Shown in pieces: positions 3,801 through 21,250 of a stretch of 32,000 nucleotides of DNA. The translations under genes were made by a program, and so were the position numbers. The notes beneath the pieces are model-generated. The model ran no database searches, was not told where the DNA came from, and saw only the letters and a program-made list of their open reading frames with translations. Positions within the stretch are counted from its first letter, which is position 1, and each line of letters starts with the position of its first letter. Origin of the DNA: Ignicoccus pacificus DSM 13166 (GTDB lineage Archaea; Thermoproteota; Thermoprotei_A; Sulfolobales; Ignicoccaceae); the NCBI GenBank assembly GCA_025340205.1, contig CP006868.1, positions 150,001-182,000 on the forward strand. Reading direction: 5' to 3'.

Positions 3801-4602
3801 GCTACCCGTGAACATGGACCATGAGACCGGCAAGCAGACCATCAACAAGAAGGTGATAATAACTTGGGAGAAGCTAGATGCCGACGCCGTCTTCAAGGGC
3901 AAGATCTCCGTCTTCGCCGCTCCCAAGGGACCATTCAAGGTGCTCAAGAAGGTAGTAGCTGAACCCACTGGCAACCCAGAGGTAGGACTGAACGTGCTAG
4001 CTACCAAGAGCTGGGGTGACGCCCTCAAGAGCAACTACGAGGACGTGCAGGCGATCTTCCAGATAGCCCTAGCGCCCGCCGAGGCTCCTGGCTTCGTGAT
4101 GAAGTACAGGCTACCCGACGGAAGTGTGCTAACCGTGAGAGACGACAGGAACTACCCGATGGTGGCCACCACCGGAAGAGTGATCGAGCACTGGCACACC
4201 TGTACCATGACTTGTAAGGTGCCCGAGCTAGTGAGAGTGAAGCCCAGCGCCTACGTGGAGATCAACAAGAAGGTGGCCGACAAGCTAGGAATAAGGGACG
4301 GCGAGTGGGTGACCGTGGAGAGTCCCAGAGGAAAGGTAACTGTGCCGGCCAGAGTGTTAGACCCCAAGACCGGACTAGGAGGACCCAGAGCGGACTACAC
4401 CTTCATACCATGGTTCGACCCCAACAAGCTGGCTAACGCAATCACGCTGGACAACTACGACGTACAGCCGTACTTCTTCCAGCCAGACTTCAAGACCTGT
4501 GCCGCCTACATAAGGAAGGCTAGGCCCGACGAGATACCGCCGGGAGGAGTGAGGTCGCCGGTACAGACCGGCAAGCCCAAGTACAACATAAACTACGTCT
4601 AA
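880..4602 (+). CDS. napA: molybdopterin (bis-MGD) oxidoreductase catalytic subunit, periplasmic nitrate reductase NapA-like, Tat-exported, 1240 aa
   Basis: GTG start followed by a twin-arginine signal (STTRRNLLKAIALGAAMATVGRA). N-terminal [4Fe-4S] motif CRFCGTGCGVQA closely matches the bacterial NapA motif. Also present: PVNHGAMCTKAFY, YGSGQLGTEESY, NPRMCMVSAV (position of the Mo-ligand Cys in NapA), GTNTAEAHPIVF, LTGQPNACGG and TGRVIEHWHTCTMTCKVPEL (NapA: GRVLEHWHTGSMTRRVPEL). The substrate cannot be proven from sequence. Confidence 0.85.
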   Translation: MKCLPSTTRRNLLKAIALGAAMATVGRAMKSLGLASKYPELTESLESLASMQATKTKYVMTIKPIGPCRFCGTGCGVQAQVLLDPKTGLAVNMFAILGIPVYPVNHGAMCTKAFYIAKALGYAGNKKAYELRLKKPAVIKDWIIPELGRPPIRPEEIPLAPRVRARQVSKNYAATLTQEEHYKKNMVEIDWDTAVKFFTTMFKYAVQKYGPHSFAYYGSGQLGTEESYVINKLTKAGIHTNNLDGNPRMCMVSAVGGYITGFGADEPETSYDHIDIPEPTTKVHADTFLLIGTNTAEAHPIVFGRIAKVKESNKNVKVILADPRKTRSGAIADLWLPLRWSMDVAFMNTLAYILVHELAKCKADPATGKVECENPEWIDFKWLKRHADFAIIEKSQKTWAHKDYNTKYNNLDGLNEVWDMGTTASIAGNYKTYPSIGKEYKNDEEIEKDWWKGFALYVKFLELYKPEVMVKILFGDEMPLINRKTAEALVKAGELDPKKVNLNETTPFVEIDPIEAMKLATKWMAKGRTLVLWTMGINQKIQGVHSINTIMNFLALTGKIGKWGSGTLSLTGQPNACGGIRDQGGLAHVLPYGRLIANKAARLEVQKIWQELTAMYLKYQGYPQSEIQKIVKQVYIHPVPGPHVIEMFRRVNAGQIKVIWIAETNPGQSLPNVYKYRVGMAKPHDDDPAFPFVVVNDIYPTRTTDVADLVFPAAAYAEKEFKYGCTERRYSVARYVIRPPGQAIGDHVIFAMIGKALEDEGLVPKAITSGFFPERNVDEAAKQAGYKSWVDYIVNKSQEVEWHKKFLDRIWNYDILSLCKNTYYDFSYVKRDFFRKLITGFRWPWPWTYAYNKDVKARYDKYHSATRYAYPYDPLMPKPELIKQMYEKIKNMNNPEEIHAYIMSIPDTELHPIHKKKWLHKVYHNVTLFKWVLKNIVEEIDDMEYKKKSKVPSDWYVIFYAKPTGRMTIWARPWLPVNMDHETGKQTINKKVIITWEKLDADAVFKGKISVFAAPKGPFKVLKKVVAEPTGNPEVGLNVLATKSWGDALKSNYEDVQAIFQIALAPAEAPGFVMKYRLPDGSVLTVRDDRNYPMVATTGRVIEHWHTCTMTCKVPELVRVKPSAYVEINKKVADKLGIRDGEWVTVESPRGKVTVPARVLDPKTGLGGPRADYTFIPWFDPNKLANAITLDNYDVQPYFFQPDFKTCAAYIRKARPDEIPPGGVRSPVQTGKPKYNINYV

Positions 4603-4687
4603 CCTTAGTTTCTTTTTGAACATTAACTCCCCGATCAATTAAGCATACCTAAATCCTCCCCCTCCCTCTCAGATAGGGAGCTCTGTA

Positions 4688-5692
4688 TTGCCCGAGGGCA
4701 AGGTTTCTACAAATAGTGAAAAGAAGAGGAGCGAAGCCAGGAGAGACTTCATCAAAGCCCTGATAGCGCTGGGTCTCGTTACCGTGATATCCCCGCAAGT
4801 GATAGCAGAGCTTGAGAAGAAGCCGGAGGGTCTAACTGACGATGATTGGTACGAACCCTTTGACATAACGGACGATCCAAAGAGACAGCAGCAATACGAG
4901 GAAAGCGCCAAGCTTCAGTTGGGGTATTCGTTAGTTATTGAGGAGAACGGGAGGAAGCTGGTAGCTAATCCCCTGCTCCCCAAGAAGCCTATAACCTACA
5001 TGGTGAAGTACGAGAAAGATAGGTTCAGGCTCCCTCCTCCCGGCGCCAAGGACCTCTTCGCTAGGTGCATTAGGTGCGGTCTCTGTGCCTCCGCTTGTGC
5101 CTCCATGGGCTACCACGCCATAAGGCTGGGAGACTTCAAGGATGGATATGTAATGCTGGGCGTACCTATAGTTGACAACCAAATTGAGTATCCTTGTACC
5201 CTATGTATGGAATGTACTAAGGTATGTCCCACCGGGGCTCTGGAGGAGATACCTCAGAGAGAGGTGAAGATGGGTATAGCTTTGATCGATCCCGATCTCT
5301 GCTGGGCGTGGAACACTGGAGAGTGCTACAGCTGCGCCAAAGCTTGTCCCTTCGGAACGGAGGTATTCGCCTTCAGATTCAACGAGTGGGGAGCTCACAC
5401 GCGAGTGCTTCCCGACAAATGCAATGGATGTGGTATGTGCGTACAAGCCTGTCCGGTAGTAGGGTCAGCAATCCACGTCTTACCCCCTGAGGAGTACGAG
5501 AGGAGGGTGAAGAACTTCAAGAACACTGGAATGAGCTATGAGGAATACATTAAGCTCATCTGGAAGACTGAGGATAGCATGTATACCGACCCTATGGCAT
5601 CGCTTAAGTTGACTTGGAGGGTAAACGTCAACGTAGACTACATAGTCAATAAGAGAGGTTTGATTGAGAGCAAGGTAAAGAAAAGTATGTGA
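4688..5692 (+). CDS. napG: Tat-signal 4x[4Fe-4S] ferredoxin, NapG-like electron-transfer subunit
   Basis: TTG start 7 nt after GGGAG. Twin-arginine motif SEARRDFIKALIALGLV. Four Cys clusters: CIRCGLCASAC, CTLCMECTKVCP, CWAWNTGECYSCAKACP and CNGCGMCVQACP. It sits between the NapA-like and NapH-like genes. Confidence 0.75.
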   Translation: MPEGKVSTNSEKKRSEARRDFIKALIALGLVTVISPQVIAELEKKPEGLTDDDWYEPFDITDDPKRQQQYEESAKLQLGYSLVIEENGRKLVANPLLPKKPITYMVKYEKDRFRLPPPGAKDLFARCIRCGLCASACASMGYHAIRLGDFKDGYVMLGVPIVDNQIEYPCTLCMECTKVCPTGALEEIPQREVKMGIALIDPDLCWAWNTGECYSCAKACPFGTEVFAFRFNEWGAHTRVLPDKCNGCGMCVQACPVVGSAIHVLPPEEYERRVKNFKNTGMSYEEYIKLIWKTEDSMYTDPMASLKLTWRVNVNVDYIVNKRGLIESKVKKSM

Positions 5693-5703
5693 GGTGATAT
5701 AGT

Positions 5704-7269
5704 ATGGTAGCAGATGGGGTAAAGAAGAACAAGTACGTACAAAAGGTAGTGAAATTCATCGAGGGGAGGCCGAAGAGAGGAAGATACACCTACCTGAGGA
5801 GGTTCTTCCAACTAGCTATACTCTTCCTCTTCTCCACTCAACTAGTCTTCAACGGCTACTGGATAGAAGGAAGCTTAGCCTCCTCGAGGGTCCTAACCGT
5901 AATGGCACTCTTCCCCTTGGCCGTCTTGGGCCTCTATTATATGTACAAAGGAATGAAGGAGATAAGTGACGTCTACAGAAAAGAGTACTTCATAGGTCGA
6001 ATAGGGTTCATCATATTGGTTATAGGCCTAGCTCTGGCGTTCTTCTACCTCTTCCAAGGAGTAGAACCTACTCTCATGCTGAAGGTCGTTAAGAGAGTAG
6101 AAGGTAAACAAGTGGTGCACTACGTAACCAATTGGCCGTTGATCATTACTTCAAGCTTGCTAACGGCCGGAATAATCGTAATGTTGGTATCCATATGGCA
6201 CTTGGGCCATAGAGGAGGACACCTAGTTCACGTAGTCCTCCAAGCGATGCCGATATACTTGGCGATGGCAATAGCAGCTTCGTTCCTGCTGAATACGCCG
6301 CTAGTAATATTAGGCTCCCTAGCGGTGGTGAACGCATTCTTAGCCATGGCTCTCTTCTCATTCTACGTTAACAAGAGGACTACTGACCCTAAGCTAGCGA
6401 AGGCCTCAAAGGACTTCGCCACAGCCTTTGGAATAGCAGCGATAGGAGTCGGCATAGCCACCGTGGTCTTCGGGGTAGCGGGAGCTCAGAGCTTCGCCAC
6501 CTTCAAGTATCCCATGATGGACCCGATAGCTTGGCTAGAGCACGCGGTAGCGGACAGGGGCTTTACCGTCGAATCCGTCGTTGCAGTGCTAGTAGTGGTC
6601 TTCCTCTACTCTGTACTGGGAAGGTTCTTCTGCGGCTGGGTATGTCCGATGGACCTACTCTTCTCAATATTCGAAAAGAAGCTGAACATGCCCAGAGATC
6701 CTCCTCAGATCAGGTTCCATAAGCCAACGAAGGCAGAGAAAATAGTGCCCATAATCGCCATAGCGGCTTACTTGGTGCTATCTTACATCTTCGCTCTGCC
6801 GTTCTTCACGACGATGTCCCCGGTTGCGGGAGCCACGAAGTTCGGGGAGTTCCTAATAGGAGTGCTCTACGACATACCGGGAGCCACCATAGGTACCGCA
6901 ATAGCCTTCGGATGGATAACGGCCTATGCCTTAATAATAAATATAATCGCTGAAAAGGTGTTCAAGATAAAGAGGTTCTGGTGCAAGTACGTCTGTCCTA
7001 TAGGTAACTTCTACGGATTCATAATGAACAAGTTCAGTCCCTTCAGACTAAAGGTGTCCTATCCAGAGAAGTGTACTAAGTGTAACTTGTGTAGCATGGC
7101 ATGTCCTATGAGCATAGACCTAGTGGACTACATAGTGAAGGGTAAGGACATCATGGATCACAGATGTTTCCACTGTGGAAGGTGTGCCGAGGTCTGCCCC
7201 TTCGGAGTACTCGAGCTGGGCTTCAGACTGAGGCAGCCTAAGGAAAACGAGGAAAAAGGAGGTCAGTAA
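5704..7269 (+). CDS. napH: integral-membrane polyferredoxin, NapH/NosH/MauN-like, with a large membrane insertion
   Basis: ATG follows a strong SD, GAGGTGAT (5691-5698). NapH-type elements: N-terminal RRFFQLAILFLF...GSLASS, two membrane-proximal CxxCP motifs (FFCGWVCPMD, FWCKYVCPIG), and C-terminal 2x[4Fe-4S] (CTKCNLCSMACP, CFHCGRCAEVCP). Multiple hydrophobic helices. Confidence 0.75.
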   Translation: MVADGVKKNKYVQKVVKFIEGRPKRGRYTYLRRFFQLAILFLFSTQLVFNGYWIEGSLASSRVLTVMALFPLAVLGLYYMYKGMKEISDVYRKEYFIGRIGFIILVIGLALAFFYLFQGVEPTLMLKVVKRVEGKQVVHYVTNWPLIITSSLLTAGIIVMLVSIWHLGHRGGHLVHVVLQAMPIYLAMAIAASFLLNTPLVILGSLAVVNAFLAMALFSFYVNKRTTDPKLAKASKDFATAFGIAAIGVGIATVVFGVAGAQSFATFKYPMMDPIAWLEHAVADRGFTVESVVAVLVVVFLYSVLGRFFCGWVCPMDLLFSIFEKKLNMPRDPPQIRFHKPTKAEKIVPIIAIAAYLVLSYIFALPFFTTMSPVAGATKFGEFLIGVLYDIPGATIGTAIAFGWITAYALIINIIAEKVFKIKRFWCKYVCPIGNFYGFIMNKFSPFRLKVSYPEKCTKCNLCSMACPMSIDLVDYIVKGKDIMDHRCFHCGRCAEVCPFGVLELGFRLRQPKENEEKGGQ

Positions 7270-7682
7270 CCTCCTCTCATTTGCTCGAGAATTGTTTTTA
7301 TATAGTTCTTTGCGTCCTCGTCTAAAGCAATTTCTCCATTTAAGAGCATCTCGTTTATCGCGTCCTCCAGGGCCTTGTCTTGGAGAAAGCCGTAGCTCAC
7401 GTAAGCCTTAGCGACGCCGGGATGGGCCTCCGCTGCCTTGATCAAGTCCTCGAGCTGGTTGACCGTCTCGGCCTCTACGTAGTAGACGATGTACAAGTCA
7501 GTACCCAAGTCATATAACTCAAAGCCCAAAGACTCCAAGTGTTTCTTTATCTCCTCTATCTTGGCAGGGTCACCCCTATGAGTGGGATTTACCAAAATGA
7601 AGCCTGTGGCGAACGGCATAGCCTTCCTACCCTTGTCCTTAATCGTGTCCAGGTTTTTGAATAACTCACTAATGGCACCCAT
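7263..7682 (-). CDS. small cytoplasmic protein with a ferredoxin-like (beta-alpha-beta-beta-alpha-beta) core; NapD-like chaperone candidate or stand-alone RAM/ACT-like domain
   Basis: 139 aa. The core GFILVNPTH...IEEIKKHLESLGFELYDLGTDLYIVYYVEAETVNQLEDLIKAAEAHPGVAKAYVSYGF aligns by eye with E. coli NapD (...GQLIVVVEAEDSETLIQTIESVRNVEGVLAVSLVYH). It is convergent with napH and overlaps its 3' end by 7 nt. Confidence 0.6.
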   Translation of the reverse strand: MGAISELFKNLDTIKDKGRKAMPFATGFILVNPTHRGDPAKIEEIKKHLESLGFELYDLGTDLYIVYYVEAETVNQLEDLIKAAEAHPGVAKAYVSYGFLQDKALEDAINEMLLNGEIALDEDAKNYIKTILEQMRGGY

Positions 7683-12109: not shown

Positions 12110-12118
12110 AAAGTTTTA
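12107..12118. terminator. shared A/T tract between convergent genes (T5 on the minus strand, T4 on the plus strand)
   Basis: TAAAAAGTTTTA spans both stop codons (ilvN TAA 12107-12109; minus-strand gene TAA at 12118-12116). Confidence 0.3.
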
Positions 12119-13282
12119 CTTGAGGCCAAGCTCTGGTTTGGCCGGAGCCGGAACTCCTTGTACGTTCAGTTGTAGCTTGTATCCCCTAACGGCCCATCCT
12201 CCCTTTGCTGTGAAGGTGGTACAAACGGTGAACGGTAGCTCGTTTATGCTGAACCCGGTCTTCTGAACGGTCACATCCGGTAGGAAGCTTCTATCTTGTA
12301 TTACCTCGAGCACACCGGTTAAGGTGGGTACTTCCTTGAAAGGAACTACGTTGGGTACGTAGACGCAACCCTTAACAGAGGAGCCCGAGGGCACCTTGGT
12401 AACCTCGCTGTTTCCTTGGTAGTACTTAGCCCAGAGGTTCGGAGCTATGAAGTAGTAATAGTAGTTGTATGCCGGCAAGAAGGCCACGATAGTCTCTTTC
12501 TCTCCTACTTCGCTAACATATATTCCGTTGGGATAATCCAGTAGCGGTCCAGTCAAGCCCAGTGCCAACCTGCCTATCTTGTTGGGGATACTCAGCGTGT
12601 AGGTCACGCTCTGCTTCGGCGCCAAGGAGCCGGTCTTCAAGGTCATATCGGGGGCTTCAACCATGTCAACCGCGACCTTGAAGCTAACCTCCTTGTTGCA
12701 TTTGTTAGTTATAGTTACATTGAAGGAGGAACCTATTGGCAATAGCTTTTCGGGTTTGAACGTGACGTTGAGACAGCTTTGAGAAGCTGGGAGAACTCTC
12801 AGGTAGCCGTACCTGTAGAATATTATCTTGCCCTCTTGGGTCTTCAGCGTCACATCCACGTAGTAGCCCAAGAAGTTCTGAAGGACTACGGAGATCTTCG
12901 GTATGTTTACCTTACCCTTGGATATTTCTGAAACTATCTTGTTAAGCTCGTTAGTTTGTATCTCAGTCGCCTTTTCTGGCTTTAGAGGCACCATGACACA
13001 ATGAGTGCCACTCAAGTAGAAGTGGAAGGTGTCTTGGAGGGACGGCGCAGTCCCTCGAACGTCTGCGTAAAGCTTCGCCGTCACCTCAGCGCTGGTGCCG
13101 TTCAAGTTAAAGCACAAGAAGAATATCTTGGGCTCGTTCAATCTCACGTAGACTACGGGAGCTCCCTTTTGGAGGACCACTCCGTTAGGACTCTGTTGAA
13201 CTATCGCTTGGTACCACTGAACGGTGAACTGACTCGCTAAGAGGGTTACTAGAAGGGCCAAGCTCACAAGGAGAACTCTCAT
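12116..13282 (-). CDS. secreted / cell-surface hypothetical protein
   Basis: 388 aa with an N-terminal signal-like segment (MRVLLVSLALLVTLLASQ). The sequence is beta-rich with several N-x-S/T sequons (NGT, NVT x2). No catalytic motif recognised. Confidence 0.6.
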   Translation of the reverse strand: MRVLLVSLALLVTLLASQFTVQWYQAIVQQSPNGVVLQKGAPVVYVRLNEPKIFFLCFNLNGTSAEVTAKLYADVRGTAPSLQDTFHFYLSGTHCVMVPLKPEKATEIQTNELNKIVSEISKGKVNIPKISVVLQNFLGYYVDVTLKTQEGKIIFYRYGYLRVLPASQSCLNVTFKPEKLLPIGSSFNVTITNKCNKEVSFKVAVDMVEAPDMTLKTGSLAPKQSVTYTLSIPNKIGRLALGLTGPLLDYPNGIYVSEVGEKETIVAFLPAYNYYYYFIAPNLWAKYYQGNSEVTKVPSGSSVKGCVYVPNVVPFKEVPTLTGVLEVIQDRSFLPDVTVQKTGFSINELPFTVCTTFTAKGGWAVRGYKLQLNVQGVPAPAKPELGLK

Positions 13283-13397
13283 GATCGCTTACCCGCATAA
13301 AGTCAGCAAGCGAGGATTATAGATGGGGTCTCTGGTCACTTTCAGCTAACTCTCTCTGCTTTTCTCCTCGGTCGCGCCCTCTAAACCGGCGGCGCTC

Positions 13398-14540
13398 TTG
13401 GACGTATTCGTTGATCTATTTTTAGAGAAGATAAGGATCAGAGGGAGCGATCTCAAGTTCAATGCTAAGATCCCTCTAAGACCATTACCCAAAGGTGAGG
13501 AAGTAGAGCAAGCGGGAGTGGACGGCGGAGGTGGAGTCCTGAAGCTCGAAGGGGGTAAGGTGCTTTACATCGCGAGAGCGGTAGCTGTGAGCTCTGATGG
13601 TATGATTAGAGATATGATAGTTGAAGTGAATCCTTGGGAGAGCAAACCCCTTTTGGAATCTATGAGAAGCTACGTGGAATTGAGTGCAGCATCAAGGGTA
13701 AAGGATAAAGAACTGTTAATGGACGGATCATATTACACAGTCGTAGTAAGGTGGTTGCAGAGGGTAGCGCGAGTCGCGCTGATGAAGGCCAAGACCTCGG
13801 AAATTCTATCCCTTCCCTATACGTTGCTTGCATTAGAAAAGCTTGTTGATATCGTAAAAAAGAAGCCGATCTTCGTAGCTAAGAGTCCAAGGTTCAAGGT
13901 ATTTAAGGATTACTTAATATTGAAGGAATTATACGAGAGAACGGGATATGAAAAGTTCTACTTCTTGATGAAAAGCCCCGAGTTAGACAAGAAAGAATTA
14001 ATCCCCTATCTAAGGGATCCCAACGCTAGAGATTTGGTTCAAGTTCTCTTGAGCGCCGCGATAAGCGACGTCGACATGATAGAGGGAGAGGGATACACCT
14101 TCGGTTTAGAGCTAGGACTTCCGAGAAAGATAAGGAGAATATTATCTCCATCGATGATAAGAGAAATAGTTCAGATGGCGAGGGAGAATTATGAGATGAC
14201 TACGGGAGAGGAGGCGCCTAGGGTTAACTTAGAGGAGCTCTGTTACCTCAAGTCTCCAGTGCTCTGGTGGGTGAGCACTGGAAGGGTAAAGTTCACGGTA
14301 GAGGAGGCCTCCGGTCAACCTCTCTGCATCTCTTCAGTCAGAAGAGAAATCGATGCGGCTCCCTCCGCTCTCCCTCACTTGGTGGCCCATGAATACAACC
14401 CTTGGTTAGCGTTGGCTCACACCATAAGCACTCTCAAGGGGGAGCAACTGATGGTATACGCTCAACTGCTTAAGGCACGCTTAGGCATAGGTATGGAGGT
14501 GATCCGTGAAGATTTGTTATCCACCTCCAGGTCTAGATGA
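13398..14540 (+). CDS. nurA: NurA-domain nuclease-like protein
   Basis: 380 aa with a TTG start. The order of motifs matches the NurA family: GVDGGGG (family DGS motif) followed by a beta-hairpin (VLYIARAVAV), acidic YVELSA, LLMDGSYY (second DGS), FVAKSPRF, AISDVDMI, and C-terminal PWLALAHTIS (conserved His region). Confidence 0.5.
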   Translation: MDVFVDLFLEKIRIRGSDLKFNAKIPLRPLPKGEEVEQAGVDGGGGVLKLEGGKVLYIARAVAVSSDGMIRDMIVEVNPWESKPLLESMRSYVELSAASRVKDKELLMDGSYYTVVVRWLQRVARVALMKAKTSEILSLPYTLLALEKLVDIVKKKPIFVAKSPRFKVFKDYLILKELYERTGYEKFYFLMKSPELDKKELIPYLRDPNARDLVQVLLSAAISDVDMIEGEGYTFGLELGLPRKIRRILSPSMIREIVQMARENYEMTTGEEAPRVNLEELCYLKSPVLWWVSTGRVKFTVEEASGQPLCISSVRREIDAAPSALPHLVAHEYNPWLALAHTISTLKGEQLMVYAQLLKARLGIGMEVIREDLLSTSRSR

Positions 14541-14552
14541 GGGGGAGAGAGA

Positions 14553-14795
14553 ATGCTACACATGGCGTTTCAAGACTACATAATTGTGGCGAATCCCGGC
14601 GATGTCATAACTCCATTCCAGACCTTAGCAACCAACGGGATTCTCACGCCTCTACAGAACTTGATCCAAAACGTCATAGCCAACTACACTCCAGAGTACA
14701 TAGTGCCCGCCACGATAATGTACATAGTAATATCTATGTTCATATTGGCTCTCTTCCTGTACATAGTAACCAGGATAGTATCCCCTATAATATGA
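14553..14795 (+). CDS. small tail-anchored membrane protein (80 aa)
   Basis: ATG lies 6 nt after GGGGGAGAGAG. It has a single C-terminal TM helix (ATIMYIVISMFILALFLYIV) and sits 12 nt downstream of the NurA-like gene. Preferred over the overlapping His/Ser-rich frame 14537..14809. Confidence 0.45.
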   Translation: MLHMAFQDYIIVANPGDVITPFQTLATNGILTPLQNLIQNVIANYTPEYIVPATIMYIVISMFILALFLYIVTRIVSPII

Positions 14796-14805
14796 CTCTT
14801 TTTGT

Positions 14806-15126
14806 GTGAAGGAAATGTCAGTTTATTACATACCCCAATGGCTCTTAGTTTTCACAGCTGCCCTCGCTGTTCTCGCCTTTTGGTACCACGCCTTAACGCT
14901 AACGGCGGGTACCTTCGCTGCAAACGTTCCCAGAAAGGGATATTGTTCATTTATGATACTGGGATGGGCCTTGTTGGTGGGCGTACAAGAAGCCTCCTAT
15001 TTCTTGGCTTACTCCTTAGGAATCGCCGTATTTGAGGATCCGTTTCTAAACATGATATTCCTAGGATCCGCTCTCCTCTCCTTGCCTGCTCTCCTCTTCG
15101 CTCTCCAATGCCTCATTGAGCACTAG
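14806..15126 (+). CDS. small polytopic membrane protein (about 3 TM)
   Basis: 106 aa (GTG 14806 or ATG 14815). Hydrophobic helices: WLLVFTAALAVLAFWY, FMILGWALLVGV and IFLGSALLSLPALLFAL. Confidence 0.5.
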   Translation: MKEMSVYYIPQWLLVFTAALAVLAFWYHALTLTAGTFAANVPRKGYCSFMILGWALLVGVQEASYFLAYSLGIAVFEDPFLNMIFLGSALLSLPALLFALQCLIEH

Positions 15127-15525
15127 GTACATCCCTTCTTCGGTATCCAAGAGAATAGCTTTTACTCCCTCAACCTTCCCTTCGTACACGTAAACGTCTT
15201 CTTCTACCTCATGCCAGTTAAGCTTGTTCAAGTCCAAGTTCTCAGGGGAGTGCCTTAGAACGGCGACTCTCCTGAGCTTCACCGGCCACTTGCTCAGCTC
15301 TCCGGCAGGCCCCTTTCCTATGGCCTTTCGATAGGTAATGTTCCCCTCTCTTATCACGTATTCGACGAACGTATCTTTAACATAGTCGCTAAGCTCCATC
15401 TGCTCTACAGCTTTCTTCAATTCACTCTTAGGAACCTCTTCACTAGAGACGAGCTTAAGGACTGGGATCTCAACACCTTCAAAACTAAGCTTTGTGACCT
15501 TGTACGTCCTCTTGATCACCGGCAA
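15061..15525 (-). CDS. hypothetical soluble protein with an acidic C-terminal tail
   Basis: 154-aa ORF, last gene of a minus-strand operon, 3 nt downstream of the MFS gene. Its 3' 66 nt overlap the convergent membrane-protein gene. No family recognised. Confidence 0.5.
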   Translation of the reverse strand: MPVIKRTYKVTKLSFEGVEIPVLKLVSSEEVPKSELKKAVEQMELSDYVKDTFVEYVIREGNITYRKAIGKGPAGELSKWPVKLRRVAVLRHSPENLDLNKLNWHEVEEDVYVYEGKVEGVKAILLDTEEGMYLVLNEALESEEESRQGEESGS

Positions 15526-15528
15526 CGC

Positions 15529-16638
15529 TTACTCCCCTCTAAAAGGGGTTGGGGTCATTGAAACGATTACCGCTAGCGCCGACGTCGAGAGCGAGTATAG
15601 GAGCAGTTGAAGGGGAGAGAGGGCGGGCATTAGCATTCCTCCAATTAAGCTACCTATGCCCAGTGAGGCGAAGGCCAAGCCGTACTTGGTTCCTCCCCCT
15701 CCCATGTCAGCTATCATGGCCTTCAAGACTACCTCTTCATAAGCTATCGCTATTCCCGCATAGGGAGCCAGAACGGGATAGTAGATGGATAAGCTCGCGG
15801 GAGCCAAGAGGACCGGTAGGATGAACGCTAACGAGCGAGACCTCGAGTAGAGCATGCCCAAGGGAAGGGCGACGAGGGCATCGGTCAACATGACTGAGGT
15901 ATAGAGGAGCGGAGCGCTTATGCCCTTGGCCTCCCCTCCTCCTGCGACCAGTATCGGTTGCGCGAAGCCCAAGCCTATCAGAAAGGAGAACAAGGCCAAC
16001 TTACTAGGACTCCAGTTGACTAGCTTCTTCCTAGGTTTGGCTCTTAGCTTTCTCAGCATAAGTAGAAGAGGAACGAGCGCTAGAGCCGGGATCGTGTAAA
16101 GCAACAGTACCTCTCTAGCTCCGAGACCGTATGATAGGAGCAAGAACGCTAGGAAAGGTCCTATTATCGCTCCCACTTGATCCATTAGCTCCACTATTCC
16201 GAAGTCCCTTCCCGGATCCTTTGCCACCGAGGCTAACAGAGCCTCCTTAGAGGGACTTCTGATGGCCTTTCCTATTCTCTCTATAAGTACGGCCGCTATG
16301 AAGACTCCCAAGGTAGGGTAAAGCGCCGAGAGAGGGTAGGAGAGGGTGAGCATGTAGCCTATAAACATGAAGGTCCAATGGGCGCCGAGCCTATCAGCCA
16401 AAACGCCGCTCAGCGCTCTGAGTAAGTAACCGGAGCCCTCCGCCACCCCGCTTAGGACGCCTATCCCTTCAAGGCCGTAATGAGGATAGATCAAAACAGG
16501 AGCCAGGGATCTGCCCCCTTCGTAAACGGTGTCCGCGAGCATGCTAAGTAAGCCAAAGATCAGTACTGGCTCCATAACATCTTCGCCGTTACCTTCCTCC
16601 AGACCCCCACCTTTGGGTCTTTCAGATAAACTATCCAC
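15529..16638 (-). CDS. MFS-type transporter
   Basis: Polytopic, Gly/Ala/Leu-rich helices throughout. A basic loop RKLRAKPRKK sits mid-protein, typical of the MFS 6+6 linker. The start is either GTG 16638 or ATG 16575 (MEPVLIFGLLSMLADTVYEGGRS). Either start overlaps the upstream gene's 3' end. Confidence 0.7.
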   Translation of the reverse strand: MDSLSERPKGGGLEEGNGEDVMEPVLIFGLLSMLADTVYEGGRSLAPVLIYPHYGLEGIGVLSGVAEGSGYLLRALSGVLADRLGAHWTFMFIGYMLTLSYPLSALYPTLGVFIAAVLIERIGKAIRSPSKEALLASVAKDPGRDFGIVELMDQVGAIIGPFLAFLLLSYGLGAREVLLLYTIPALALVPLLLMLRKLRAKPRKKLVNWSPSKLALFSFLIGLGFAQPILVAGGGEAKGISAPLLYTSVMLTDALVALPLGMLYSRSRSLAFILPVLLAPASLSIYYPVLAPYAGIAIAYEEVVLKAMIADMGGGGTKYGLAFASLGIGSLIGGMLMPALSPLQLLLYSLSTSALAVIVSMTPTPFRGE

Positions 16639-18020
16639 CTTCGGTCCAACTCCGGAGGTATGGTGCCGTAAGTTATGAACAAGCCCCTTCCAGTCTTGAA
16701 TATCTCCCTTTCCACACTCTTAAACAACTTAACGCTCTCCTCCTCCATTCTCCAATAACCCTTTGACATAAAGGTGACTAGTTTGTGCACCCTTTTCCTT
16801 CTCAGTACCCTTTGAAGAATCTCCAGCATCCTAAAGGGATCCTTCGCTGTCTTACCTGTTAAGCTCACCGGCACCCTTTCCTCAAATCTTACGTGTTTAT
16901 CATCCCAAATTAGAACGGAAAGCTCATCGAAGTACCTTTTAACACCGCTTAGGACTCTGTTTACTTCATCAGGGTTCAAGTCGTTATCTATGATCCATAA
17001 GGACGAAAGTTTCGACTCGAAGAGTCTTAAAGCAGGTCCCTTCACCCTTCTGTTCTTCCTCCTCCTCAGTACTACCGATTGCGAGCTCCAATATCCCCAA
17101 TCGTACTCGAAGCTCCTTAGCTTTCCTCTCATGTGGAAGATCCAAGGCTTTGGGTATATCCTCCCCGAGCTGAGCTCCTTTCTCAAGAGCTCCAAGTTGA
17201 AGTTAAGCGTGGATGAGTTAAGCTCCGGGAACCTCTCTTGAGGAACCTCTGCCTTGGTCTCTGGGTAATTTATTAGGTCACTCTTGAAGGTCCCTAAAGA
17301 ACAATTGCTCAAGGGAAATGGTACGTGAGGAAGATTCCCAACGTTCAAATTGTGTGCTATAAGTTCTATGAGCTCGACGAGGGGAAGGTATATCTCGTTG
17401 AGCAACCTTTGCGCAGTTCTTGAGGTGTTGCGCGCCAAGCATCCCGAAGTCTCGAGCGTCTCCAAGACGCTGGGAAAGCTTACTTTGGTTACCTTCTTGA
17501 ACTTAAGTGCGCTGTTGAGTATTGAGAGTAAGTAGGAGTTACAGCTTCTATAAGCATACACCATCACCTTGAACACCATGTTTTCCGCTATGTCATTTGC
17601 TGCAATATCGTGAACCAAGTTTGTTATTTCATAACTTAAGAAGTCACCTAGAATAGTATCATCGACTATTTCGCCTACTATAATTGAGGCTATTCTATGG
17701 TACCTCGTGATATCCGCTATGTGGTGGCCTATCTCGTGGGCGGCGTTCCACCAAGTAATGACTCTGGCAGCACACTCCACGTATTCCTTTGGCATCCTTA
17801 TCGATTCGACCAGCTCCTCTATCTCTTGGTTCAATGCGGCTACGTTCACTATTATCGTTCGCGTGTATGGGCTGTAGGACATGGAAGCGAAGGAGGTTGA
17901 TCCACTCACGAACATTAAGCTAGGTAAGGATGACTTTTCAAATCCTAACAATATGAACGAGCCATAAACCTCGGAGATCCACCTCTTAATGTTCTCCACG
18001 GAGCAACAACCTTCCAGCAA
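16560..18020 (-). CDS. putative zinc metallopeptidase domain (HExxH) fused to a degenerate vWA-like domain (DUF2201-like architecture)
   Basis: 486 aa with a TTG start. AAHEIGHHIAD is encoded at 17721-17738 and checked on the minus strand. The C-terminal half has the basic stretch RRRKNRRVKGP, then LWIIDNDLNPDEVNRVLSGVKRYFDELSVLIWDDKHV. This matches the layout of a vWA MIDAS strand, helix and next strand, but without the DxSxS residues. Confidence 0.55.
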   Translation of the reverse strand: MLEGCCSVENIKRWISEVYGSFILLGFEKSSLPSLMFVSGSTSFASMSYSPYTRTIIVNVAALNQEIEELVESIRMPKEYVECAARVITWWNAAHEIGHHIADITRYHRIASIIVGEIVDDTILGDFLSYEITNLVHDIAANDIAENMVFKVMVYAYRSCNSYLLSILNSALKFKKVTKVSFPSVLETLETSGCLARNTSRTAQRLLNEIYLPLVELIELIAHNLNVGNLPHVPFPLSNCSLGTFKSDLINYPETKAEVPQERFPELNSSTLNFNLELLRKELSSGRIYPKPWIFHMRGKLRSFEYDWGYWSSQSVVLRRRKNRRVKGPALRLFESKLSSLWIIDNDLNPDEVNRVLSGVKRYFDELSVLIWDDKHVRFEERVPVSLTGKTAKDPFRMLEILQRVLRRKRVHKLVTFMSKGYWRMEEESVKLFKSVEREIFKTGRGLFITYGTIPPELDRRWIVYLKDPKVGVWRKVTAKMLWSQY

Positions 18021-18101
18021 AATTTCGTACCTTTAGGAGGTTATCGGAGCCCCATATTTACTATTTAAGTATTCTTTAGACTTCTCTATTGTTGGGCAAA
18101 A
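18021..18101. promoter_or_regulatory. divergent promoter region between the HExxH/vWA-like gene and the AAA+ gene
   Basis: 81-nt A/T-rich gap with TATA-like ATATTTA (18054-18060) and TATTTAAG (18062-18069). These lie about 35-40 nt from both start codons (18020 minus, 18102 plus). Confidence 0.35.
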
Positions 18102-19730
18102 ATGAGTGCCATCACAGCACGAGTAAAGAAAGTGGAGTTCGAGGAAATGGAAAAAGTTCTCTCAGATCACTTCCTAGAGTACATACTCTGGGATCGCCGG
18201 AGAAGGTTGAGGGCTTCTAGAAGCATTTTCTTACTAGGGAGCATTGGAATAGGAAAGAACGGAGTCGTGAGGAGCGCCCTTAAGAACGTCATCAGAGGGA
18301 TGGTAAGTTTCGTGAAGGAGGTGAAAGGGGAGGTACCGCCGCACGTAAGAAGATATGCCACCTGCATCACGCAAGAATGCCAAATAACGAAATTAAAATT
18401 AATGAGAAGGAAGGATGATGCTAAAATAATGAGGATGGTCGAAGGAATATTGGACGCTTTAGATCTTAGTAATTGTCCAGAATGTCAAGAGGTAAGCGAC
18501 GAGGGAATACTGATCTTCACCTCCTCTCTTGATCTAGAGCTTTACAAAAACAGGATAGTGTTAGTTGAACACGCCATACCTTCTTCCACGCCCGAGGAGT
18601 TAACGGGGCTTAGAGACCTTTCCAAGGATTACAGCAAGCAGTCGCCTCCCGAGTGGGCAGTCGCTCTTAGGCATGCTAGGTTTGGAGTGCTCGTGCTTAA
18701 TGACATAAACTACAAGTGCCCCGAAGCGGTGAGATTAGCGCTCAACTCCATATCAAACGAAAAGAGGGCCGGGGAGTACGAGTTCGATAAACCCGTAGTG
18801 CTGACAGCAAACATCGAGGAGGACTTAGATGAGTACATCGAGAGCATACAACTAGCATTGGCCAATAGGGCCGAGATATACCACATGACGCCACCTAAAA
18901 TACTGACTTGGATGAAGTACATGAATAGCACACATAGGGATAACTGGCTGACTTCAATAGGTTCCTTTCTCCTTCTCACATCCTCTTACGGCATCTTCCA
19001 AGATGACAGGTACATTGACGATGTATTCGTATCAATACCAGACGAGAACTCCTTACAAGCTCCGACCCTCCGCAACTTTCCAACCCCTAGAAGCTGGGAA
19101 ACGGTAGCTTGTCACGCAAAGGAGTATAAGGAGGACTACGAGTACTTCCTAAATATCGGTAACAGTCGCTTCGCTTGTGGAGAATTGAAGAAACTGAACG
19201 AAAGGGCGTATTCCTTACTCGGATCAGAGAGTCTGGCATTGAGCGTGGTAGCTCTGGTCTCATCAAGGAGGCTGAACGACGCCCTCTTCAGATCGGGGAT
19301 ATCGAGGGTAGCTCGCGTGGGCAGATGGGAGATCGAGGATGCCATGCAATTGATAAATGGGATCATAGATTTCATAGAGCACCTTGATGATGAGATACCT
19401 TGTCATATAATACCCCCAGGAGGTAAGAACTTATTGATATCAGTACTGATAATAAATCCATTCCACAGAGCGCTAAACGTCCTTGAGAAGAAGCTGGATC
19501 CGATAAAGAGTTCGGGAAGGCCCAGCGACCTATGCAGGAAAATAATTACTCTACTGGAGAACGGGGAGCCCGCCACTACCTTCCTGAGCTCCTTGCTTAG
19601 GGCGTTGCAGAGAGATGGAGAAGTAGTAATCGATATTAAAGATCAAATAGTGGACGAAATCAAGAGAAGGCTGAGTAGGGAACCAGAGGAGGAAGAGAAG
19701 CTGCTCCCATGTTTACTTTCCGGACCGTAG
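18102..19730 (+). CDS. divergent AAA+ ATPase of the MoxR / AAA_5 type with non-canonical Walker motifs and a Cys4 insertion
   Basis: 542 aa. P-loop-like LLGSIGIGKNG (18237-18260). Then ...EELTGLRD...FGVLVLNDIN (18687-18710)...PEAVRLALNSISNEKRAGEYEFDKPVVLTAN...ALANRAEIYHM follows the AAA_5 order (Walker B, sensor-1 Asn, Arg region). CITQEC...CPEC lies between Walker A and B. Confidence 0.55.
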   Translation: MSAITARVKKVEFEEMEKVLSDHFLEYILWDRRRRLRASRSIFLLGSIGIGKNGVVRSALKNVIRGMVSFVKEVKGEVPPHVRRYATCITQECQITKLKLMRRKDDAKIMRMVEGILDALDLSNCPECQEVSDEGILIFTSSLDLELYKNRIVLVEHAIPSSTPEELTGLRDLSKDYSKQSPPEWAVALRHARFGVLVLNDINYKCPEAVRLALNSISNEKRAGEYEFDKPVVLTANIEEDLDEYIESIQLALANRAEIYHMTPPKILTWMKYMNSTHRDNWLTSIGSFLLLTSSYGIFQDDRYIDDVFVSIPDENSLQAPTLRNFPTPRSWETVACHAKEYKEDYEYFLNIGNSRFACGELKKLNERAYSLLGSESLALSVVALVSSRRLNDALFRSGISRVARVGRWEIEDAMQLINGIIDFIEHLDDEIPCHIIPPGGKNLLISVLIINPFHRALNVLEKKLDPIKSSGRPSDLCRKIITLLENGEPATTFLSSLLRALQRDGEVVIDIKDQIVDEIKRRLSREPEEEEKLLPCLLSGP

Positions 19731-21250
19731 GGGGAGTGCCCTTGAAGGTGACGAGAAAAGTCGTTTTGCTGGAGGACGATTACTTGGTCCTCATAGGTTA
19801 TCCGTATAAAGAGAATGTCCTCCACAAATCGGGGGAGGTGGAGAAGGTAGTATTAAATGTGCAGAATGGAAGAATAGAGATACTTGGTTCTGAGAAAAGC
19901 ATCAAGATGGTATCCGACCTCATCGATTTGGAAATAAAGGAAAGGTTGGAATATGTCATAACGGAGCTCCTAAGGGTCCTGAAGTCGCGATACAAAAGCG
20001 TGTTTAAGCTGGTAATGGGCGACGAGAGGAAGATCTCCTTCTATGCTTTCTGGAAAGGGAGGCCCTTGGAGGTAGACGCCGCTAAGGTTCCTCCGCTCAG
20101 GATACATCCAGCGATAACGTACATAACAATAGAAGGAGTCTATATGGACAGCTACGAGTCGATTAAAGTAGGAAACCTCGAGGTCCTCAACAGAAAGCTT
20201 TCGTATAAGAGTATATTCCGAGGACTCTTAGCCCTAGTAGGTAAGGGAGAGAGCAGAACCGCTTTCTACCTAAACCCAGCCGTTCTCATGTCCCACCCTA
20301 CGGTGAGGGAGTGCTCCAAGTATGCTATGGAACCCCCTAGTGCTATCCCTACGGCTGATGAAGAGATAAACCCCAACGAAACCCTTCTCACTAACCTCGA
20401 GTTGGTAGGGCTTACCTCAAACAACGTCAATAAGGTTATAGTACTAAGAGAGGGTTACATAATGGTTGGAAAGAGAACGATTGGACTCTATGATGAGAAG
20501 GGAAGGTACAAGAAGACTTGTGATGCAATATTGGCTTACGGCGGCCTCGAGTGTATCTGTCGAAGAGGAGATGAACTCCTCTGGACCGATGGTTCTAAAG
20601 ATAGAATAATCCCCTTAAAGGGAAGGAGATATGCCGTGGGAGATGGAAGGGTGTTAGCATGCAGGGAAAGGGACTGTTTCACTTGGCCTACAGAGCTGAG
20701 GCTCAAGGTAAGGGGTGCCCCCCTCCCATTTATTATAGATAGGATCGCCTACTTCATAAACGTTAACGGTAATGGGTACAAGCTGAAAGCGGTAGACATG
20801 ATAACTGGAGATGAGTTGGGTATTCGAGAGTTCCCGAAGAAGACGATGTTTATAAAAGCGTCGAAGAACCTGATAACTGTCACAAAAGGGGAGAACAGAC
20901 TGTTCAGAGTGTTCAATAAGAAGCTAGAGGAAATAGAGAGTAAAACGTTAGACGAATTCGACCTAAACTCTTTCACATTGCCGTACTTCAGCGAGGAAGT
21001 TGGCTTCTTGCTGAGTAAGCTGAGCTACAACGAGACGGCGGTCTACGTCTTCAATCCTTCATCACCAAATGCAGATCAACTGATAATATTGCCTCATGGT
21101 CCTTGGTCTATCTCAGCAAAGGGTAACAGGATATACATCTTCAATGATCAGAAGCTTTACGAAGGTAGGTTGGACCCAGTTGAGGTGAAGGAGGTAACCA
21201 AGGAAGTCCTCCAGATAAGTTGGAAGTGCCCAATTCGTCCCTCCTACTAA
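19709..21250 (+). CDS. hypothetical protein, 513 aa, beta-rich repeat-like C-terminal half
   Basis: The ATG overlaps the AAA+ stop by 22 nt (alternative in-frame GTG at 19736). No catalytic motif recognised. The C-terminal half shows recurring short strand-turn-strand units (KVIVLREGYIMVGKRTIGLYD, DELLWTDGSKDRIIPL, RYAVGDGRVLACRE, IAYFINVNGNGYKLKAVD, NLITVTKGENRLFRVFN, TAVYVFNPSS..QLIILP, NRIYIFNDQKLYEG). Confidence 0.6.
   Translation: MFTFRTVGGVPLKVTRKVVLLEDDYLVLIGYPYKENVLHKSGEVEKVVLNVQNGRIEILGSEKSIKMVSDLIDLEIKERLEYVITELLRVLKSRYKSVFKLVMGDERKISFYAFWKGRPLEVDAAKVPPLRIHPAITYITIEGVYMDSYESIKVGNLEVLNRKLSYKSIFRGLLALVGKGESRTAFYLNPAVLMSHPTVRECSKYAMEPPSAIPTADEEINPNETLLTNLELVGLTSNNVNKVIVLREGYIMVGKRTIGLYDEKGRYKKTCDAILAYGGLECICRRGDELLWTDGSKDRIIPLKGRRYAVGDGRVLACRERDCFTWPTELRLKVRGAPLPFIIDRIAYFINVNGNGYKLKAVDMITGDELGIREFPKKTMFIKASKNLITVTKGENRLFRVFNKKLEEIESKTLDEFDLNSFTLPYFSEEVGFLLSKLSYNETAVYVFNPSSPNADQLIILPHGPWSISAKGNRIYIFNDQKLYEGRLDPVEVKEVTKEVLQISWKCPIRPSY

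Follow-up and report, generated by a model that had tools for sequence, protein, structure and literature searches.

Several AAA+ ATPases of the AAA_5/MoxR kind are paired with a protein that has a VWA domain and a separate N-terminal domain, as in NorQ-NorD, CbbQ-CbbO, RavA-ViaA and CoxD-CoxE. In such couples (e.g. NorQ-NorD) a hexamer of the ATPase holds the VWA protein, the MIDAS (an adhesion site that depends on a metal ion; DxSxS-T-D) of the latter grips an acidic residue of the target, and ATP hydrolysis remodels that target (PMC9976466). A Walker B mutation in NorQD leaves ~2% of the ATPase activity, and MIDAS mutations abolish maturation of the client but not binding between ATPase and VWA protein (PMC9976466). 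MoxR-vWA ternary conflict systems (VMAP, iSTAND, FtsH and beta-propeller types) have a three-gene core in which an AAA+/VWA pair is joined by a variable third component, and some of their vWA domains lack the MIDAS aspartates (Kaur et al. 2020, PMC7159879). A further pair is found among the core genes of N4-like phages, where gp24 carries the label 'unknown' and gp25 the label 'vWFA domain' (PMC4193335). Here we describe three genes of Ignicoccus pacificus DSM 13166, IPA_00965, IPA_00970 and IPA_00975, which lie in a 32,000-nucleotide (nt) stretch of contig CP006868.1 (positions 150,001 to 182,000; hereafter the window, with all coordinates given within it). The first two genes can be recognised from sequence as a divergent member of the AAA ATPase + DUF2201/vWFA pair (N4 gp24/gp25-like).

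The likeness to the N4 gp24/gp25-type pair lies in an ATPase of the same superfamily, in the adjacency of the two genes, and in a partner of the same architecture, namely a HExxH motif, an N-x3-D-x3-N motif and then a VWA-like domain. The window differs in that its ATPase is ~180 amino acids (aa) longer, with a cysteine-bearing insert after Walker A and a ~200-aa helical C-terminal extension, and in that its partner gene lies upstream and is divergently transcribed instead of lying directly downstream. In addition, the window departs from the canonical Walker A, Walker B and MIDAS and has an extra orphan gene after the ATPase. Closer in organisation are two loci of archaeal long-form relatives (L011 and L009), which have the window's layout of a partner on the minus strand, a short divergent gap, the ATPase on the plus strand and a tightly spaced or overlapping downstream gene; in L011 a CBS gene is found further downstream, as in the window. 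These long-form ATPases (L011, L009, IPA_06615) are the nearest clade to that of the window by score. They keep GKS and DE, and the L011 partner keeps DxSxS/GGT/TDG, whereas the window has neither. The initial annotation of this DNA, made from the sequence alone, had concluded that the combination maps onto no characterised system; the pair is in fact recognisable as N4 gp24/gp25-like (PMC4193335), and what stands of that conclusion is that the N4-type pair itself has no assigned function.

What is new here is co-degeneration: as read from the alignments, the Mg/catalytic positions of the ATPase and the MIDAS of the partner are both changed, and HExxH is kept. We favour, with a probability of roughly 0.6, the reading that the locus is a fast-evolving paralogue of the archaeal long-form branch of this two-gene ATPase + DUF2201-type module, acting as a nucleotide switch for a peptidase.

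The ATPase and its partner

The three open reading frames (ORFs) that the initial annotation had delimited are all present at its coordinates, as are the AAHEIGHH motif and the 81-nt divergent gap. IPA_00965 (16560-18020, minus strand, 486 aa) encodes a predicted divergent DUF2201_N-like (HExxH metallopeptidase-like) and DUF2201/VWA-like protein; IPA_00970 (18102-19730, plus strand, 542 aa) a long-form protein resembling AAA+ ATPases of the AAA_5/MoxR-midasin kind, in which the Walker motifs are non-canonical; and IPA_00975 (19736-21250, plus strand, 504 aa in the NCBI annotation, 513 aa from an ATG at 19709) a soluble orphan without a recognisable domain. The trio occurs in identical order and orientation on a 3.9 kb metagenome contig from a vent (L001, ENA ERZ23491583), with 45%, 49% and 41% identity for IPA_00965, IPA_00970 and IPA_00975, respectively. 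Between these two loci synonymous sites are saturated (proportion of synonymous differences, pS, 0.78-0.87) while the non-synonymous proportion (pN) is 0.33-0.39 for all three genes, which shows that all three are under purifying selection and, together with the synteny, that they are real genes. The trio is known from these two lineages only. A word-indexed search of 5.8 billion clusters returned each protein itself and nothing else, apart from one relative of the ATPase (P0002), and a metagenome scan with the ATPase pair gave no match.

Relatives of the ATPase were collected by scanning 1.84 billion representatives exhaustively with HMMER, using a profile of the window protein and P0002 (cut-off E<=1e-3). 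The scan yielded 111 relatives, 24 of them at E<=1e-10, and the best 58 of the 111 were used for the Pfam scan and for the invariance counts given below. AAA_5 is matched by 29 of the 58, AAA by 25 and bpMoxR, weakly, by two; the best match of IPA_00970 itself is to AAA_16 at E=0.21, which is not significant. The only significant direct library match among the three proteins is that of IPA_00970 to the PHROGs family phrog_1297 'ATPase' (E=2.2e-12). Compared with solved structures, the family profile best matches Midasin (2e-9), including the sensor-1 region (VxAAxNP...LP...NR). Midasin/Rea1 is likewise an AAA_5 protein, but a six-module eukaryotic giant with its own MIDAS domain, and its likeness to the window ATPase extends no further than the AAA_5 clade. 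Transitively, through its relatives, IPA_00970 is a putative member of the AAA+ family of the AAA_5/dynein-midasin-MoxR kind, and the 'MoxR/AAA_5-like' label that it had been given is upheld through these intermediates, not by a direct profile match.

Long forms of 540-670 aa make up around 17 of the relatives. Common to them are a variable helical insert behind the Walker A helix, the motifs LDEFTN and VVATGN, an invariant Arg, PPTVxxWIxYM, FPSPRAWE and, at the C terminus, a helical extension, and they constitute a previously unrecognised archaeal ATPase subfamily for which the current Pfam models miss significance. The unusual length remarked on in the initial annotation is a real feature. 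I. pacificus has at least three long-form paralogues including IPA_00970, and the other two, IPA_06615 and IPA_02035, carry canonical Walker motifs. By bit score the window protein and P0002 are a long-branch outlier (54-106 against all others, which score ~90-370 among themselves), and the clade nearest to them comprises IPA_06615, P0008, P0009 and P0012.

IPA_00970 fails both the canonical Walker A (GxxxxGK[S/T]) and the canonical Walker B (hhhhDE) patterns, a departure that the initial annotation missed. Walker A reads GSIGIGKN (residues 46-53; 18237-18260, plus strand), with the Lys retained and Asn in place of Ser/Thr; GKS is found in all 15 other long-form members, as against GKN in the window and P0002. 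Walker B reads VLVLND (residues 196-201; 18687-18704, plus strand), with Asn-Asp in place of Asp-Glu, where all other aligned members have LDE (DE in 15/15 of the other long forms). P0002 has the altered residues N53, N200 and D201 as well. K52 is retained together with three further residues, the roles of which are assigned by position. N237 (18810-18812, plus strand), a sensor-1-like Asn that ends the motif VVLTAN, is near-invariant in the 58 members and aligns with VFAAQNP of Midasin. R256 (18867-18869, plus strand), located after sensor 1, is a candidate arginine finger, and R330 within FPTPRSWE (19089-19091, plus strand) is a candidate sensor 2; both are invariant (58/58). The helical insert that separates strand 2 from the Walker A helix (18363-18485, plus strand) contains four cysteines, C88, C93, C125 and C128, in the pattern CxxxxC ... 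CxxC. All four occur together only in the window protein and P0002, the second pair being absent from the other family members, and one might speculate that they form a lineage-specific metal site that binds zinc.

In the partner, IPA_00965, the HExxH zinc-binding motif is intact as HEIGH (residues 95-99; 17724-17738, minus strand) within AAHEIGHH, and it is conserved in the partners from L001, L009, L011, L015 and L016 and in DUF2201 proteins. Approximately 35 residues further on lies NLVHDIAAN (residues 134-142; 17595-17621, minus strand), an N-x3-D-x3-N motif that is found in every partner and in DUF2201_N proteins (NFVMDAKAN, NVAADVVIN, NLAADAEIN). Its N134, D138 and N142 are invariant in the A8 alignment, and the motif would be expected to supply the third metal ligand. 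A C-terminal VWA-like domain (approximately residues 325-486; 16563-17048, minus strand) is indicated by BLASTP, hhalign and alignment. Within it, DNDLN (residues 345-349; 16974-16988, minus strand) is aligned in place of the MIDAS DxSxS, and downstream TGKT stands for GGGT and SKG for SD/TDG. The DxSxS/T/D of a MIDAS is thereby DNDLN/T/K in the window and EDDLP/K/K in L001 (EDDLP, TGKK, TKG), whereas it is kept (DxSxS...GGT...(T)D) in DUF2201 proteins and in the L011 partner.

The Pfam models DUF2201_N and DUF2201 (PF13203 and PF09967) do not match IPA_00965 even at E<=1, and its assignment was reached by profile comparison. In hhalign the window pair of partner proteins aligns with the other archaeal partners at P=9.6e-4 (full-length, colinear) and with eight DUF2201 proteins at P=5.3e-3 (residues 8-459 against 4-404, colinear); six partners taken together align with the DUF2201 proteins at P=1.3e-5 (probability 81%, full-length, colinear), and the VWA region alone aligns with DUF2201 at E=3.3e-5. 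The partner from L011 bridges IPA_00965 to DUF2201, as judged from similarity on both sides. BLASTP aligns it with IPA_00965 in two colinear segments, at E=0.009 (residues 290-483, the VWA region) and 0.12. It has HEAFH, NVIHDVYAN and an intact MIDAS (IDFSASIS, SGGT, LLTDG), it matches DUF2201 proteins in phmmer at 1.5e-4 and 9e-4, and in Pfam it gives sub-threshold DUF2201/VWA_CoxE matches at the right positions (DUF2201 E=0.047). What settles the assignment is that the neighbourhoods of the ATPase relatives carry DUF2201/HExxH proteins. IPA_00965 is accordingly best described as a putative divergent DUF2201_N (HExxH) + DUF2201 (VWA-like) protein with a degenerate MIDAS, and the DUF2201-type, vWA-like C-terminal half proposed earlier is borne out in the same indirect manner (the L011 partner and hhalign in place of a direct profile match). 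The earlier domain calls were essentially right, which deserves mention since no standard profile detects these domains.

The ATPase and DUF2201-type families are genomically coupled well beyond the window locus. All nine loci with a short-form ATPase (9/9; Thermoproteota archaea, one bacterium and N4-like phages) have a DUF2201_N+DUF2201 or VWA_CoxE protein downstream. The partner follows directly in Pyrobaculum oguniense (L002), in metagenome-assembled genomes (MAGs) of a Thermoproteaceae member and an Aeropyrum (L004 and L005), and in a Sulfolobales MAG and a Dormibacteraeota MAG (L003 and L006). In four viral contigs it is the first or second gene downstream or is separated from the ATPase by as little, at one or two genes' distance. 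In Roseophage DSS3P2 the gene adjoining the ATPase encodes a DUF2201_N+DUF2201 protein (A7 profile, 2e-19). Among long-form loci, L009 and L011 have the HExxH protein divergently transcribed from the ATPase, as in the window; in L015 and L016 it lies a few genes upstream (A8 profile, 7e-7 and 2.3e-6), and in L014 the partner candidate is truncated.

Two of these loci gave observations of their own. The DSS3P2 gene is gp22 of NC_012697.1 (L021, 4111-5292), with the motifs HEIWH, NIAGDHVIN, LDVSGS, SGGGT and FTD; its annotation as 'HNH endonuclease' is probably wrong, and gp22 is the N4 gp25-like partner of the gp24-like ATPase. In P. oguniense TE7 (L002, 1104-5391) three tandem paralogous ankyrin-repeat proteins of ~460 aa each are encoded immediately upstream of, and divergently from, the ATPase/DUF2201 pair. 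Such repeats are uncommon among archaea.

The third gene and the genomic setting

From its ATG at 19709 the third ORF would overlap the ATPase stop codon (19728-19730) by 22 nt, which the initial annotation took as a sign of translational coupling. The NCBI start of IPA_00975 is the GTG at 19736, and the L001 homologue starts at a TTG 11 nt past the ATPase stop which aligns with a TTG at 19742 in the window. For these reasons the overlap is probably a start-codon artefact, and the conserved start is probably TTG 19742. IPA_00970 and IPA_00975 are tightly linked all the same and are predicted to form a single transcription unit.

The earlier remark that the third protein has no recognisable motif holds across all searches made. 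IPA_00975 matches nothing in Pfam (even at E<=1), NCBIfam, PADLOC, PHROGs or the PDB, and tblastn against phage and plasmid collections gave no match. Its A3 profile detects only the L001 homologue among 534 ORFs of related loci, and no similarity was found to the genes downstream of the ATPase in L011 or L009. The protein has no transmembrane segments, no internal repeats (BLASTP and hhalign self-comparison) and no toxin, nuclease, caspase or trypsin effector domain. A beta-propeller fold was considered for it and rejected, given the lack of internal repeats and of Pfam repeat matches. IPA_00975 is a lineage-restricted soluble orphan under purifying selection. The gene in third position measures 504 aa in the window, 433+236 aa in L011 and 198 aa in L009, and the accessory position downstream of the long-form ATPase appears to be variable. 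A gene of ~200 aa downstream of the long-form ATPase is common to L009 (7614-8210) and L014 (3469-4161; phmmer 8e-9) and is unrelated to IPA_00975. The single three-gene module put forward at the outset is upheld in part: the trio is syntenic in L001 and the ATPase/partner pair is coupled elsewhere, but the third protein is conserved only in L001. Co-occurrence of the trio across genomes, which had been suggested as a check, likewise extends to that one other lineage, the third gene being undetected in the other related loci.

The divergent intergenic region between IPA_00965 and IPA_00970 (18021-18101, 81 nt) has TATTTAAG at 18062-18069; this TATA-like box lies ~35 nt upstream of the ATPase ATG. 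The elements ACTAT(A)TTTAAG and CTTT(A/C)GAC are common to the intergenic regions of the window and L001, and in both the TATA-like ACTAT(A)TTTAAG is placed ~35 nt upstream of the ATPase ATG. Judged by the archaeal TATA consensus it is a putative promoter element.

The trio is flanked by genes for an MFS transporter, several orphans, a CBS protein and a TrkA_C/PhoU protein. The longest MFS ORF, on the strand of IPA_00965, shares 79 nt (16560-16638) with the 3' end of that gene, and the longest CBS ORF shares 31 nt (21220-21250) with the end of IPA_00975. Both overlaps probably reflect over-long ORF starts, and they suggest that each flank may be co-transcribed with the module. Upstream, four ORFs at 12116-15525 (388 aa, minus; 380 aa, plus; 106 aa, plus; 154 aa, minus) have no Pfam or PADLOC match at E<=0.1 and together with the trio make up ~9 kb of database-dark genes. 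At 880-7682 two genes for iron-sulfur (Fe-S) proteins come after one for a molybdopterin oxidoreductase (1240 aa), accompanied by a small convergent ORF with a weak NapD-like match (E=0.002). This looks like a respiratory cluster of the sulfur/polysulfide-reductase type; it lies ~9 kb from the trio and has no conserved linkage to it. The G+C content over 17000-21000 is 0.456-0.468 against ~0.47-0.55 in most of the window, a difference too weak for an island call.

Proposed mode of action and rival readings

Amid the changes described above, the pair retains the Walker A Lys, the sensor-1 Asn, the two invariant Arg, HExxH and N-x3-D-x3-N. We infer that the ATPase-like protein still binds nucleotide, with slow or absent hydrolysis, and that it serves as a nucleotide-dependent scaffold or switch for a partner still competent as a metallopeptidase. 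Physical contact between the two would be MIDAS-independent. By analogy with NorQD, where MIDAS mutants still bind and a Walker B mutant has ~2% of the ATPase activity, the window proteins may still associate, yet would be unable to act as a canonical MIDAS-dependent motor. IPA_00975 would be a co-transcribed, lineage-specific client, adaptor or substrate. A scaffold or switch controlling a metallopeptidase would be the most economical model.

Several observations weigh against this reading. None of the three proteins has a significant direct match in Pfam, NCBIfam or PADLOC, and PDB sequence searches with the single proteins and with the A2, A3 and A8 profiles returned nothing meaningful. Neither an AAA+ nor a VWA fold was seen in the two structures predicted, those of the ATPase and of IPA_00975. 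Structurally, the AAA_5/MoxR-dynein-midasin clade is marked by a helix-2 insert and a pre-sensor-1 hairpin. The AlphaFold2 model of the ATPase, built from a two-sequence alignment, had a predicted local distance difference test score (pLDDT) of 51, with the core below 50, and was not usable, although the order of its strands and helices would fit a P-loop ASCE core; a Foldseek search of this model against the PDB gave nothing below E=0.02 (TM scores ~0.1-0.2) and was treated as uninformative. The single-sequence model of IPA_00975 likewise failed (pLDDT 34) and was not used. The link from IPA_00965 to the partner family draws on modest P values (1e-3 to 5e-3) and on gene context. Coupling is not universal, three long-form loci (L007, L012 and L013) being without a demonstrable partner within ~5 kb; weak 'partner' matches in these loci were examined and rejected as noise. 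The third gene is not conserved in more distant loci, and its membership of the module is indicated by one syntenic contig and a spacer of at most 11 nt. Finally, GKN and ND could still support hydrolysis through unusual chemistry.

A more far-reaching version, in which the co-degenerated pair is a nucleotide-gated, non-motor regulator of an intact zinc metallopeptidase and the 504-aa protein is a third subunit that arose de novo or diverged beyond recognition, is possible, and we hold it only tentatively.

It is unlikely that the trio is instead a three-component conflict (defence) system of the MoxR-vWA ternary type, a link that had been raised in the initial annotation; the orphan would then be a sensor or effector that evolves fast, and an activation threshold would be set by the ATPase-VWA pair. 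MoxR-vWA cores with a variable third component, some with vWA domains that lack the MIDAS aspartates, have been described (PMC7159879). In keeping with that pattern, the third position differs among the window, L011 and L009, the ATPase/partner pair evolves fast, and two of its relatives match bpMoxR weakly. However, PADLOC finds nothing for the partner, the third protein, the neighbours or the L011 trio, and the ATPase gets no more than weak RT-family/PDC-M37B matches. Pfam carries families from ternary systems (bpMoxR), yet IPA_00975 matches no family at E<=1; it corresponds to none of the defining third components (FtsH, VMAP, inactive STAND or TPR/beta-propeller proteins) and, as noted, has neither an effector domain nor a transmembrane segment. 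No defence, integrase or transposase gene was found among the flanking genes, so the marks of a mobile element are absent from the flanks too. The described systems are concentrated in multicellular bacteria (PMC7159879), whereas the host here is archaeal and unicellular, and the ATPase motifs needed for a threshold dependent on nucleoside triphosphates are degenerate. Positive evidence for the conflict-system link is thus wanting in both PADLOC and Pfam.

Less probable again is a role for the pair as a chaperone dedicated to the maturation of a nearby metalloenzyme, as with NorQD, CoxDE or the chelatases; the molybdopterin oxidoreductase ~9 kb upstream would then be the candidate client. Characterised MoxR-VWA couples do act in cofactor insertion (PMC9976466, PMC7159879), the oxidoreductase and its Fe-S subunits are encoded in the window (880-7269), and in L011 an Fe-S protein gene follows the partner gene. 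Against this, the stretch between the oxidoreductase and the trio exceeds 9 kb and is filled with unrelated genes on both strands, and neighbours beyond the module are not conserved across L001, L009, L011, L014, L015 and L016. Unlike the characterised couples, the trio has no linked client gene. The residues essential in NorQD (the Walker B Glu and the MIDAS Thr and Asp) are those altered or lost in the window proteins. There is no significant sequence match to NorQ-NorD, CbbQ-CbbO, RavA-ViaA or CoxD-CoxE, and the window partner differs from the VWA proteins of these couples in having a metallopeptidase-like N-terminal domain. The NCBIfam and Pfam models of CoxD/E, NorQ/D, CobS/T and BchI/D are not matched above noise by any of the three proteins. 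The profile searches called for earlier gave no direct Pfam, NCBIfam or PADLOC match of significance for the trio and no hit placing it in a chelatase, CoxDEF or NorQD set.

Least probable of all is that the trio consists of decaying or functionless paralogues of a canonical module (of the IPA_06615 or IPA_02035 type) with a spurious or unrelated downstream ORF: canonical paralogues do exist in the same genome, the window pair is on a long branch and its catalytic motifs are degenerate, but ORFs intact in two lineages with saturated synonymous sites and a pN of only 0.33-0.39 largely refute decay, the altered N53, N200 and D201 are themselves conserved, K52, N237, R256, R330, HExxH and N-x3-D-x3-N are retained, and so is the TATA-like box.

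Meaning for the family

The AAA ATPase + DUF2201 pair is widespread, being found in Thermoproteota archaea, in at least one bacterium and in the core of N4-like phages, and it is without an assigned function; the locus ties orphan Ignicoccus proteins to it. The locus is confined to two known lineages and opens no long-standing question. Under the favoured reading of a nucleotide switch for a peptidase, the locus would be a natural separation-of-function variant, in which the ATPase catalytic and MIDAS residues have been replaced and the peptidase motif has been conserved under selection. This pattern points to the peptidase domain as the functional core, and suggests that the contact between ATPase and VWA protein can persist without hydrolysis or a MIDAS, as the NorQD mutant data would predict. 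The genome of I. pacificus offers a biochemical comparison of IPA_00970 with its canonical paralogues IPA_06615 and IPA_02035. Should the more far-reaching version hold, the N4 gp24/gp25-type module would have given rise, in archaea, to a new proteolytic switch of three components.

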